Counted from the first letter of the stretch, positions 4,759 through 8,536 are shown. The stretch: 8,536 nucleotides of DNA from a virus (IMGVR_UViG_2737471865_000006:1-8536); one strand, 5' to 3'. Notes: a model not told the origin generated them from the sequence alone. Numbers and translations: made by a program.

Positions 4759-4911
4759 AGGATGATCCTTTTTCTATGTGAATCATCACCACTGCTGACG
4801 CCAATCAGTATGGTGGTGAACTGTGCAGGGTTGGCGTAACCGGGAAAAAGGAACCGGCGCGGATCGCTCCGCCCCCACACAGCCCACCATTGAGATGTGA
4901 CAGTGCAAACG

Positions 4912-4937
4912 ACAATAAAAAAGACGCTGGCGCGTCT
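4912..4937 (-). terminator. tR'-like terminator of the short late transcript
   Basis: Minus-strand RNA AGACGC-GCCA-GCGUCU followed by UUUUUAUUGUC, about 70-75 nt downstream of the predicted pR' start site. Confidence 0.55.
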
Positions 4938-4997
4938 GTTGTCGCCTTTTTCATCCGGGACGCCAATCCCGACGCCAGATTTTGCTGGCGCGTGAGG

Positions 4998-5027
4998 AAT
5001 ATAGCCCCGGACAATGTGTCTGGTCAA
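4998..5027 (-). promoter_or_regulatory. pR'-like late promoter immediately downstream of Q
   Basis: Minus strand -35 TTGACC (plus 5022-5027), 18-nt spacer, -10 TATATT (plus 4998-5003), starting 5 nt after the Q stop. The initial transcribed region has hairpins CGCCAG-N6-CTGGCG (4973-4990) and CGGGA-N6-TCCCG, as expected for a Q-utilisation/pause region. Confidence 0.5.
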
Positions 5028-5791: not shown

Positions 5792-6841
5792 TTACCCGAG
5801 CACGCCGGTTGCAAAGGCGTGATCAAGAAAACGAAAAATTAAATCAACCTGGGAACCATGCTTTTCTTCGAACGCCAGCGGATCCGCATGAAGTTCGTTG
5901 TGATGTTCCCGGCACAACGGTAGCGTGAAAATATCGTGGGCCTTTGTTCCCATCCCTCCCTGACCGTGACCAATCAGGTGATGGGGATCGTCGGCTGGCT
6001 GACCACAACACGCACACGGCTGTGTCTTCACCCAGCGCGTATATTTCTCATTTACCCAACGGCGACGTTTAGGTCGCCTCATGAAAGATTCCGGAGACTC
6101 CGGATCAACGGTGATGCATACCACCGTCTTTTCCTGTGGTGGGTTCTGTTGCTGGTGGGCATGAGGCAACGGCGCAAGATTTTTTGTGCGCTGCTTCAGT
6201 ATGCTGGTGGCGGTCTGCTCTCCCGGTACGATGTCGCTTTCGCGGTACAAGGAGCGGATTTTTTCCGCACGTAACCCCAGAGAACGACGTAATACTGCCT
6301 CCGGAAGCGCGTCCGCCACCTGATTGCAGACCGCCCACCAGGATAATTCAGCCAGCGACAATTCCCGCTCCTGCGTGCCATTCATTGCATGGCGTATGAC
6401 GTCAATCATCCATGCTGACAGGTTTTGATGAGCAAGTTGCCCGAGTGATTCGGATGTCTGGTCACGCAACTGGTTGTCGCAGTGCCAGCACAACACCATC
6501 GCGCCGGTACCGTAACGATGTATGACGATTTCACTGTGATGATAGTCACCATGAGGCCACTGGCAGGATTTGACATGACGCAACAGCCAGTCAGACAGTG
6601 CCCCAGCGCCGCCAGCAGCACGAATCACCCGCTCATCGCTGAAAAATGGCAGTAATGATTTATCCTCCGCCAGCGGCTGGCGAACGGCAGGGACGACTCC
6701 GGACGGCAGACCGCGCATGCTTTTCGGTTCAGGCTCCACCAGCACTCGAGGGTTATGAAATACTTGCATGGATTCACGGCCCGGCCTAAGGACCACCAGC
6801 CCGAGTTCCGGTACCAGAACAGGTCGAAGTAATATCCGCAC
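5792..6841 (-). CDS. DUF968-like prophage protein (YdfU-like) with C-terminal Cys/His HNH-like motif
   Basis: Large nin-region ORF with C-terminal CACCGQPADDPHHLIGHGQGGMGTKAHDIF...CREHHNELH. Start proposed at the GTG at 6839-6841, which has GGAGGT upstream and follows the upstream gene's TAA by 1 nt, giving 349 aa. The ORF-track start at 6913 would overlap the upstream gene. Confidence 0.6.
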   Translation of the reverse strand: MRILLRPVLVPELGLVVLRPGRESMQVFHNPRVLVEPEPKSMRGLPSGVVPAVRQPLAEDKSLLPFFSDERVIRAAGGAGALSDWLLRHVKSCQWPHGDYHHSEIVIHRYGTGAMVLCWHCDNQLRDQTSESLGQLAHQNLSAWMIDVIRHAMNGTQERELSLAELSWWAVCNQVADALPEAVLRRSLGLRAEKIRSLYRESDIVPGEQTATSILKQRTKNLAPLPHAHQQQNPPQEKTVVCITVDPESPESFMRRPKRRRWVNEKYTRWVKTQPCACCGQPADDPHHLIGHGQGGMGTKAHDIFTLPLCREHHNELHADPLAFEEKHGSQVDLIFRFLDHAFATGVLG

Positions 6842-7861: not shown

Positions 7862-7884
7862 ACGGAAAAAACGCCGAAGCGGGT
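7862..7884 (-). terminator. Terminator-like hairpin downstream of hok
   Basis: Minus-strand RNA CCGC-UUCG-GCG followed by UUUUUUCCG, about 70 nt after the hok stop; short stem; nearly identical in sequence to the 7194-7218 element. Confidence 0.45.
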
Positions 7885-7953
7885 TAAGTGCGGGTGCGTT
7901 GAGGATGCCTGACACATCAGAGGTGGCGAGGGATTTCTCCCCCGCCAGGTCTC

Positions 7954-8109
7954 TTACTCCTCAGGTTCGTAAGCTGTGAAGACAGCGACCTCCGTCTGGC
8001 CGGTTCGGATTCGTACCTCGCAGAGGTCTTTCCTCGTTACCAGTGCCGTCACAATGACGGTTAAACAGATGACGATCAGGGCGATTAACATCGCCTTTTG
8101 CTGCTTCAT
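7954..8109 (-). CDS. hok: Hok/Gef-family type I toxin (small membrane-depolarising peptide)
   Basis: 51 aa MKQQKAMLIALIVICLTVIVTALVTRKDLCEVRIRTGQTEVAVFTAYEPEE, which matches HokD/HokC (Gef) as recalled; ATG at 8107-8109 with AAGGAG 8 nt upstream. Confidence 0.85.
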   Translation of the reverse strand: MKQQKAMLIALIVICLTVIVTALVTRKDLCEVRIRTGQTEVAVFTAYEPEE

Positions 8110-8166
8110 AGCCTGCTTCTCCTTGCCTTTCGGCACGTAAGAGGCTAACCTAGATTTGCCGTTCAT
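7954..8166 (-). CDS. mok: Mok-like overlapping reading frame (in-frame N-terminally extended Hok)
   Basis: In-frame 19-codon extension MNGKSRLASYVPKGKEKQA upstream of hok, ATG at 8164-8166 with GAGG 9 nt upstream; same arrangement as mokC/hokC as recalled. Confidence 0.55.
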   Translation of the reverse strand: MNGKSRLASYVPKGKEKQAMKQQKAMLIALIVICLTVIVTALVTRKDLCEVRIRTGQTEVAVFTAYEPEE

Positions 8167-8230
8167 AGATTGAGCCTCAGATTAATGTTAAGCGTCTTGC
8201 AGGACGCGTAATGTTAACTGGGGCTTTTCT

Positions 8231-8266
8231 CTATCTGCCTTTGGTGTTCATGCCTGAGGCAGATAG
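8231..8266. repeat. Perfect 10-bp inverted repeat in the hok leader region
   Basis: CTATCTGCCT (8231-8240) and AGGCAGATAG (8257-8266) with a 16-nt loop. Adjacent are two TAATGTTAA direct repeats (8183-8191 and 8209-8217) flanking the hairpin GCGTC-N6-GACGC (8192-8207). Confidence 0.6.
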
Positions 8267-8465
8267 CCTCAAGCACCCGCAGCAATTCTACTTAACTCAC
8301 CTCACCTCGCCAATATAAAATCAATCAGAAAGGCGATCCATAAGAACAACAGCAAGGCAATAAATTGCCATTACAGCGTAAGCATCCGGTGAAGGCGCAT
8401 TGCCGGCCGTCGTAAACCACGCCATTCTGCAGGCTCTTCCTTTATATGCAAAAGTGAGAAACCTG

Positions 8466-8536
8466 ATGGCAAAAAAAATGACCCCGGCGCAGCGACGCCA
8501 GCACTACGACGCCTGGCGCGCCTTCTCCGCTGACGA
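8466..8536 (+). CDS. 5' end of an unidentified plus-strand gene running off the window
   Basis: ATG at 8466 then MAKKMTPAQRRQHYDAWRAFSAD with no stop before the window end; divergent from hok. Only 23 codons visible; weak ribosome-binding site. Confidence 0.3.
   Translation, partial: MAKKMTPAQRRQHYDAWRAFSAD

Follow-up and report, generated by a model that had tools for sequence, protein, structure and literature searches.

A reading frame for a Hok-like toxin lies on the minus strand of a viral DNA stretch of 8,536 nucleotides (IMGVR_UViG_2737471865_000006, hereafter called the window), and it raises the question of whether this toxin belongs to a complete type I toxin-antitoxin system and, if so, what such a system may do for the prophage that carries it. 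The hok/mok/sok module is a long-known killer module, and its hokD/hokW type is present in many Escherichia coli lambdoid prophages. Its sequence marks the region as a complete hok/mok/sok type I toxin-antitoxin cassette that belongs to the hokD/hokW clade and constitutes a moron within a lambdoid prophage; taken jointly, this identity and an RNA-switch mechanism of the plasmid R1 type are very likely correct. The evidence in hand comes from sequence elements, from alternative folds predicted for the RNA, from covariation in the family and from the near-identity of the locus to validated ones. The coordinates of all features are collected in Table 1.

The Hok peptide (51 aa, 8109-7954 on the minus strand) reads MKQQKAMLIALIVICLTVIVTALVTRKDLCEVRIRTGQTEVAVFTAYEPEE and matches the Pfam family HOK_GEF (PF01848) with E=1.2e-23 and 82.9 bits for a cut-off of 22, as well as PHROG 251, 'MokW-like host killing', with E=2.8e-33. 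It is identical to HokD of E. coli K-12 and 92% identical to HokW, in agreement with the original prediction, made from the sequence alone, of an essentially HokD/Gef-like toxin at this place. The match to the NCBIfam Hok subfamily stayed under its cut-off (48.5 vs 73) and the PADLOC defence-system models gave no match for Hok; these two resources brought no gain over Pfam and PHROGs. The mok reading frame is preceded by a Shine-Dalgarno sequence, GAGG (8178-8175), placed 8 nt upstream of the mok ATG (8166), and by analogy hok would be translated via mok through translational coupling. Two antisense open reading frames on the plus strand, 7976-8140 and 8211-8318, were rejected: they have no support and lie under the hok and Sok RNAs.

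The Rfam model RF01794 ('sok') matches the minus strand at 8278-8104 over its full length (model positions 1-157) with 111.7 bits, for a gathering score of 59, and E=1.9e-25. Chance does not account for such a score, nor for the folds of the transcript (z=-7.3) and of Sok (z=-5.6). A match on the hok-sense strand is expected since the hok AUG is where the model stops, so that it covers the leader. This covariance-model search had been suggested as a check along with the original prediction of a standalone hok/mok type I locus inside a prophage; together with the Pfam match, the 93% identity to hokW-mokW-sokW and the lambdoid neighbours, its outcome bears that prediction out. The limits first given to the locus, 7954-8300, enclose its core but are too narrow, since the promoter reaches 8313 and the 3' UTR extends to ~7866: the functional locus runs on the minus strand from ~8313 (promoter) to ~7866 (terminator).

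The cassette is widespread. Segment 8377-7850 and loci that carry the annotation 'hokD' in complete E. coli genomes have 99.8% DNA identity, these loci being among the best matches listed; 84 records of complete E. coli genomes share at least 99% identity with the same segment and at least 80% of the query is present in 1583 of the 5426 complete E. coli genomes. The copy of strain 165 lies in a lambdoid prophage and occupies the same position, with replication genes on one side and DUF968/RusA/Q on the other, and phage records include temperate coliphages with 98-99% identity, for example Tritos, where the gene is annotated 'HokD toxin'. In the window, the lambdoid neighbours comprise TerL, TerS, an HNH endonuclease, an M15 endolysin, two holins, Q, RusA and DUF968, accompanied by an AraC-type regulator and ORF6N/Ash-like proteins, and the site of the cassette is the early-to-late regulatory region of the lambdoid prophage. 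With the whole window as a megablast query, no complete E. coli genome was covered by more than 73%.

The upstream limit of the cassette is set by an insertion sequence. Intact hokD loci are homologous to the window exactly as far as 8377/8378, from where the plus strand reads GTAAGCATCC... toward an open reading frame starting at 8466. The original prediction regarded the latter as a divergent plus-strand gene; the start position is right, but the gene is not a prophage gene. It displays 94.4% identity to E. coli copies of tnpA, an accessory gene of the IS66 family, and is therefore the first open reading frame of an insertion sequence running off the window. The junction between this element and the hok locus was not found in the 5426 complete E. 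coli genomes, nor was its 30-mer present in any IMG/VR contig. The element lies 65 bp upstream of the hok -35 hexamer and could alter hok promoter activity; it adds one more case of an insertion sequence adjoining a hok locus.

A consensus scan for promoters and terminators recovered the hok promoter and failed to find the Sok promoter and the hok terminator, whose positions were set by homology and folding. The hok promoter is followed at 8278 by the start conserved in the family, GGGTGCTTGAGGC, and in other hok loci a -10-like hexamer is located 6-8 nt upstream of the conserved start GG(G/C)..GCTTGAGGC; transcription would accordingly begin at ~8278 as judged by these motifs, although complementarity of the tac side to fbi reaches 8281. 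Counted from this putative start, the 5' UTR spans 169 nt before the hok ATG is reached and 112 nt before the mok ATG, and the leader is hence shorter than the roughly 300 nt first proposed. The perfect 10-bp inverted repeat noticed in the leader at the outset is present on the minus strand (CTATCTGCCT at 8266-8257 and AGGCAGATAG at 8240-8231) and corresponds to the upper tac stem; an independent repeat search returned it as the core of a longer repeat (21 nt, 76% complementary) linking tac and ucb. The same search uncovered a perfect 9-nt long-range inverted repeat between 7889-7897 and 8273-8281.

Table 1. Features of the hok/mok/sok cassette and of its upstream boundary, in window coordinates
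Feature	Position	Strand	Description
IS66-family left end (GTAAGC...; tnpA ATG 8466)	8378..8536	+	outside the hok locus but bounds it
hok/mok mRNA promoter	8285..8313	-	-35 TTGGCG (8313-8308), 17-nt spacer, -10 TAGAAT (8290-8285); promoter scan
tac element GGGUGCUUGAGG	8267..8278	-	putative mRNA 5' end; Rfam model start 8278; pairs with fbi in the MFE fold
upper tac stem	8231..8266	-	CUAUCUGCCU (8266-8257) / AGGCAGAUAG (8240-8231); perfect 10-bp inverted repeat
ucb / anti-SD box AAAAGCCCCAG	8219..8229	-	predicted partner: mok SD (full-length mRNA), tac (3'-trimmed mRNA); MFE folds
Sok target region	8141..8180	-	mok SD 8178-8175, mok ATG 8166, variable loop 8163-8153, dcb AGCCUC 8146-8141
mok reading frame	7954..8166	-	70 codons, in frame and co-terminal with hok; layout and length as in the mokW CDS of 933W
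hok toxin gene	7954..8109	-	51 aa; SD AAGGAG ~8123-8118; HOK_GEF match
3'-UTR hairpin GGCGGGGGA-GAAA-UCCCUCGCC	7925..7946	-	folds
fbi element CCUCAACGCACCC	7892..7904	-	tac complement; 48 nt past the stop codon
eroded intrinsic terminator	7866..7882	-	CGC-UUCG-GCG then U6; 3-bp stem predicted
Sok antisense RNA	8158..8228	+	71 nt; coordinates via alignment from the sokW misc_RNA of phage 933W
Sok promoter	8123..8151	+	-35 TTGCCT (8123-8128), 17-nt spacer, -10 TAACCT (8146-8151)

In the 3' UTR, the GAAA hairpin presumably protects the 3' end of the processed mRNA, its analogue in R1 being the last stem-loop of the Tr-hok mRNA (PMC9841398). Further downstream, the intrinsic terminator is degraded: relatives carry AACCCGCUUCGGCGGGUUUUU, with the 7-bp stem AACCCGC/GCGGGTT, whereas the window has ...GCUUCGGCGUUUUUU and a stem of 3 bp. 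The same terminator sequence as in the window occurs in strain 165, whose locus belongs to the 99.8% matches, and homology to other clade members ends right at the terminator. Owing to this degradation, the mRNA may end elsewhere than modelled, which would also shift the moment at which fbi is removed, and read-through into a downstream lipoprotein-like gene (7810-7418) is possible.

In R1, the closure of tac on fbi leaves ucb to mask the mok Shine-Dalgarno sequence, and trimming of the mRNA leads to tac/ucb and SDmok/dcb stems (PMC9841398). The latter state permits translation and Sok binding, and a metastable hairpin forms at the 5' end during transcription (PMC9841398). In our models, the predicted folds of the window transcript reproduce each state of this switch. 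The unconstrained minimum free energy (MFE) fold of the full-length transcript (8278-7866) reaches -167 kcal/mol (z=-7.3); it pairs 8278-8267 (tac) with 7904-7892 (fbi) and GCCCCAG with CUGAGGC, so that the folded hok mRNA leader put forward by the original prediction finds support. When the 3' end is trimmed to anywhere from 7925 to 7910, GGG.GCUU/AAGCCCC (tac/ucb) stacks on the 10-bp stem and a GAGGCU...AGCCUC hairpin forms, whose apical region contains the mok AUG and the Sok-complementary loop. That the Sok target region adopts this SDmok/dcb hairpin in the trimmed mRNA is predicted by the truncated and nascent folds and by the Rfam consensus structure. The nascent RNA, in its first 39 nt, folds into a different 5' hairpin, GGGUGCUUGAGGC/GCCUCAGGCAU.

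These structures are also visible in the family, for which comparison loci were taken from GTDB genomes. In 49 loci falling into five 5'-end types, tac and fbi co-vary: the 5' end and the fbi box change together in the pairs GGGUGCUUGAGG/CCUCAACGCACCC, GGCGCUUGAGGC/GCCUGAAGCGCC, GGGUGCCUGAGA/UCUCAUGGCACCC and GGCGCCUGAGA/UCUCAUGGCGCC, and in most loci compared the fbi element lies 45-57 nt past the stop codon. Cognate tac/fbi duplexes have a mean energy of -20.1 kcal/mol vs -15.9 kcal/mol for non-cognate ones, in a matrix that is not strictly diagonal because G-U wobble allows some 5' types to pair with the fbi of other types. The window duplex itself amounts to -21.5 kcal/mol, compared with -12.9 +/- 2.4 kcal/mol when the 3' UTR is shuffled. 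An RNAalifold consensus of 25 leaders recovered both the tac/ucb stem (columns 2-8 with 72-78) and the SDmok/dcb stem (columns 124-129 with 162-166), with compensatory changes in 7 of 20 pairs; within the upper tac stem, column pair 15/65 is compensatory (UA in 11 leaders, AU in 10, GU in 2 and GC in one). Such compensatory changes in the clade point to purifying selection on the structure.

On the opposite strand, sequence comparison places a putative Sok gene, with promoter, recognition tail and terminator hairpin, across the mok translation-initiation region. The original prediction of a plus-strand Sok-like antisense RNA around 8110-8230 is sustained by homology to sokW as regards its existence and location, but its extent is reduced to 8158-8228. 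The predicted molecule begins with a single-stranded 5' tail of 14 nt, continues with a long terminator hairpin comprising the TAATGTTAA repeats and finishes with GGGGCUUUU (U-tract); it folds with -30 kcal/mol (z=-5.6). The hairpin initially described between direct repeats is present, the two TAATGTTAA copies being found on the plus strand at 8183-8191 and 8209-8217 around GCGTC..GACGC; the bracketed hairpin is that of the Sok terminator, to which the ucb/SDmok hairpin corresponds on the sense strand. These repeats belong to an extension of ~18 nt, located at the top of the Sok terminator hairpin, that is common to all hokD/hokW-clade loci examined, while the hokC, hokB and R1 groups are devoid of it. 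We also considered the 9-bp TAATGTTAA repeats around a 17-nt palindrome as a target-site duplication; this origin is unsupported, the extension being clade-wide and encountered in other Escherichia species and in Kluyvera.

Transcription of this RNA would depend on a promoter that both the first reading by eye and our scan had missed because its -10 hexamer, TAACCT, shares just 3 of 6 bases with the consensus and is therefore weak by this measure. The failure to recognize it by eye is thus understandable, but a TTGCCT-17-TAACCT promoter could be located at 8123-8151 on the plus strand. The 26-mer 8127-8152 is identical in 933W, and the promoter is positionally equivalent to TTGCGC-17-TATCCT of an R1-type locus. 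The pro-less sokW mutation, as rebuilt from published primers, alters the same hexamer (TAACCTA to GAGCCGG), and this change de-repressed HokW toxicity (Takada et al., PMC8621323). Hexamers and terminator are those of sokW; the differences between the two antisense genes are limited to the 5' tail and one loop base.

Assembled, these elements suggest the following mechanism. A constitutive minus-strand promoter (8313-8285) would produce a stable mRNA of ~410 nt, whose 5' end would be held in the metastable hairpin at the nascent stage. In the complete mRNA, tac (8278-8267) would pair with fbi (7904-7892) and ucb would hide the mok Shine-Dalgarno sequence, allowing neither translation nor Sok binding. 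Exonucleases would then slowly trim the 3' end as far as the GAAA hairpin (7946-7925) and so strip fbi, after which tac would move onto ucb and the mok Shine-Dalgarno sequence and ATG would become exposed in the hairpin with dcb. As long as it is synthesized, the unstable 71-nt Sok (8158-8228, plus strand) would pair with the mok start region via its 14-nt 5' tail, block mok and therefore the coupled translation of hok, and mark the duplex for RNase III. A stop in Sok synthesis, be it through loss of the element, shut-off of transcription by an infecting phage or prophage induction, would lead to Sok decay; Mok and Hok would then be translated and the 51-aa Hok would depolarise the inner membrane.

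For the window copy, we infer expression, processing, toxicity in its present host and a physiological pay-off, and we consider this copy to be probably active. The closest experimental guide is hokW-sokW. HokW is toxic and is neutralised by sokW, partly via RNase III and Hfq, with published Northern detection (PMC8621323). [quoted passage not shown] A 2026 preprint reports in addition that HokD is toxic and that hok genes are enriched about four-fold in prophages and show no enrichment near defence systems (10.1101/2025.08.07.668861). The hokW-sokW findings and the facts of this preprint favour an active cassette whose main benefit would go to the prophage at induction. By analogy with hokW-sokW, help with host lysis and phage release at induction may tentatively be regarded as the main role; prophage addiction and phage exclusion are possible as well but are less supported than lysis assistance.

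Stabilisation of the prophage by post-segregational killing of the cells that excise or lose it would extend to the window copy the role classically assigned to hok/sok of plasmid R1 (10.1101/2025.08.07.668861; PMC9841398). The enrichment of hok in prophages agrees with such an addiction module, as does the annotation of 933W, which labels hokW 'prophage maintenance'. An integrated prophage is, however, seldom lost by segregation, and the earlier work recounted in the preprint obtained no post-segregational killing with the native chromosomal loci hokA, hokB and hokC (10.1101/2025.08.07.668861); addiction is therefore an unlikely main role.

Abortive infection or exclusion would operate when a superinfecting lytic phage shuts down transcription in the host: with Sok decayed, Hok would kill the cell before any phage is released. 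The proposed mechanism would indeed answer to a transcription shut-off, prophages often carry defence genes (discussed in 10.1101/2025.08.07.668861), and R1 hok/sok on a high-copy plasmid was reported, in work cited in PMC8621323, to lower the efficiency of plating of T4 by 42% and the plaque size by ~85%. This T4 effect, as cited there, is nevertheless modest and was obtained from a multicopy plasmid; the idea is further tempered by the absence of hok enrichment beside defence systems (10.1101/2025.08.07.668861), PADLOC models gave no match, and the phenotype of the nearest relative, hokW-sokW, is an aid to the release of the resident phage itself (PMC8621323). As a main role, exclusion is likewise improbable.

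Lastly, a silent relic, intact in sequence but inactive and drifting with the prophage without contribution to fitness, is a minority possibility kept in consideration by the erosion of the terminator and the nearness of the IS66-family element (65 bp from the promoter), along with the lack of killing by chromosomal hokA, hokB and hokC in the earlier work related by the preprint (10.1101/2025.08.07.668861), the IS186 directly downstream of K-12 hokC and the 5' truncation of K-12 hokD, but it is quite unlikely given that all known regulatory elements and both reading frames are intact, that other complete-genome copies are 99.8% identical, that the compensatory changes of the clade indicate purifying selection on structure and that activity has been demonstrated for hokW-sokW, which is 93% identical (PMC8621323).

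With an active, induction-linked cassette as the preferred reading, one feature of its antisense RNA deserves a separate comment. The Sok 5' tail, together with mok codons 2-5 (8163-8153), is the most variable stretch of a cassette otherwise conserved at ~93%; six of the first nine Sok bases differ from sokW in this tail, and cross-recognition is therefore probably reduced. A somewhat speculative and rather doubtful extrapolation is that the variable tail and the extended terminator hairpin reflect selection for orthogonal Sok/hok pairs, by which prophage copies could coexist without cross-neutralising, and that the eroded terminator and the insertion sequence might re-time or re-wire activation, for instance by read-through into the lipoprotein gene. 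If orthogonality were true, several prophage copies of the hokD/hokW type could share one cell without neutralising each other.

The cassette itself is nothing new: the family has been known for decades and near-identical copies are already annotated in complete genomes and phages. Its possible biological effects, on lysis timing at induction, prophage retention and phage exclusion, are not new in kind either. The main value of the present analysis lies in annotation, as RefSeq entries of near-identical loci mark the hokD CDS alone; precise positions for the mok frame, the Sok RNA, the promoters and the tac, ucb, dcb and fbi elements can be taken over from hokW/sokW and R1.

Among known systems, the closest is hokW-mokW-sokW of 933W/VT2-Sakai (Sp5), where mok, hok and sok are annotated and DNA identity attains 93.3% over 421 nt. 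Both loci are carried by lambdoid prophages and possess a 70-codon mok, a 51-aa Hok (92% identical), a 71-nt Sok and the clade-specific Sok terminator hairpin extension of ~18 nt flanked by TTAACATTA repeats; their Sok promoter, Sok terminator, tac and fbi sequences are identical. They differ, apart from the Sok tail, in the Hok C-terminus (TAYEPEE in the window, VDYESEK in HokW), in the 3' flank and terminator, and in genome position, the 933W locus being near the right end beside L0136-L0141 whereas that of the window is located between the insertion sequence and the DUF968/RusA/Q block.

The likeness to R1 hok/sok (parB) is one of architecture and extends to the tac/fbi pairing, ucb, SDmok/dcb, the metastable 5' hairpin and the predicted RNA switch, to an in-frame mok that adds 18-19 codons to hok, and to a Sok promoter overlapping the hok Shine-Dalgarno sequence and dcb. 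The R1 Hok protein, in contrast, is only 41% identical to that of the window. The 5' end reads GGGUGC... in the window and GGCGC... in R1, with matching changes in fbi; R1-type leaders have a longer tac-stem loop, whereas the window clade has a longer Sok terminator hairpin, resulting in a 71-nt Sok. The carrier is a plasmid for R1 and a prophage for the window.

The third comparison concerns hokD (relF) of the K-12 Qin prophage, which encodes the identical Hok, has the same DNA from the hok Shine-Dalgarno sequence through fbi but for single-base differences at a few positions, and shares the prophage neighbourhood of DUF968/ydfU and Q. Homology starts at AGGAGAAGCAGGCTATG, ~13 nt upstream of the hok ATG, and relE of the relBE pair lies upstream of that point: K-12 hokD has no promoter, tac, ucb, mok start or Sok, and relBE stands in their place. 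The original prediction had described this Qin arrangement correctly and was right in stating that relBE is absent here, the window having a full leader in place of relB-relE. K-12, on the other hand, keeps the full 7-bp terminator stem that the window does not. On the strength of this alignment, the window, like the 1583 of 5426 complete E. coli genomes with at least 80% of the query, carries the intact locus of ancestral type, and the relBE-hokD arrangement of K-12 is derived by truncation from such a complete prophage hok/mok/sok cassette.

The hok/mok/sok cassette of the window is preceded by an IS66-family insertion sequence lying on its upstream side, 65 bp from the hok -35 element, and the junction between the two found no match in 5,426 complete E. 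coli genomes or in IMG/VR. In E. coli strain 165, whose intact hokD locus is 99.8% identical, the 3' end of a putative 29-codon hydrophobic ORF (VLVLKCALAIAAVMAIYCLAVVLMDRLSD) lies 8 nt ahead of the hok -35 element. The window retains a remnant of it (see table).

Features flanking the hok cassette and the Q gene
Feature	Position	Strand	Remarks
IS66-family insertion sequence, left end	8378-8536	+	GTAAGCATCC...; tnpA ATG at 8466
Putative hydrophobic 29-codon ORF, intact copy	5969-6057 of comparison hok locus L001	+	AGGAGG SD; without annotation
Remnant of the putative hydrophobic ORF	8321-8377	-	5' part removed by the IS
Lipoprotein-like gene downstream of hok	7810-7418		PHROG 16082; LGGC lipobox
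isrK	4917-4991	-	Rfam
C4 antisense RNA	4809-4894	-	Rfam
a1/b1 target of C4 antisense RNA	4952-5004	-	Rfam

Positions 7889-7897 and 8273-8281 display perfect long-range complementarity between the 3' element fbi and the 5' end of the hok mRNA. It reaches 3 nt beyond the start assumed at 8278, on the upstream side; the real transcription start could be located at 8280-8281. The 11 nt at 8153-8163 (-) encode mok codons 2-5 and form the Sok 5' tail as well. When ten loci of the hokD/hokW clade are compared, no other stretch of this length is as variable: non-majority bases make up 31% of it, versus a mean of 7%. This variability may insulate co-resident hok copies against cross-talk. Further along, hok codon 47 is TAC (7969-7971, -) in a UACG context, and its tyrosine is aligned with the C-terminal cysteine of HokB. 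TadA-mediated A-to-I editing, converting Tyr to Cys, has been stated for hokD mRNA as for hokC and hokE, the edited-in cysteine being needed for the disulfide (preprint 10.1101/2025.08.07.668861). The candidate editing site is conserved at this codon in the window.

The genome contig search also retrieved eight hok loci (L018, L027, L033, L038-L040, L054 and L072) in assemblies labelled Veillonella, Acinetobacter, Xanthomonas, Ferruginibacter, Streptomyces, Oscillibacter, Dysgonomonas and Vagococcus. Most of them are identical to Hok of the E. coli or R1 type. As short contigs carry most of these loci, a genuine distribution is less likely than contamination or mis-binning.

Erosion has left the hok terminator of the window (7866-7882, -) with a stem of only 3 bp and a UUCG loop; in K-12 and in other members of the clade the stem has 7 bp. 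The mosaic junction to the lipoprotein-like gene downstream falls at this very place, so transcriptional read-through from hok into that gene is possible.

The isrK, C4 and a1/b1 matches all score above the Rfam gathering score. They directly follow the Q antiterminator gene (5427-5032) on its downstream side, and ORF6N/Ash-like ORFs come after them or overlap them. This region (4809-5004, -) looks like an antirepressor control module, P1/P7 immI-like or Gifsy IsrK-like.
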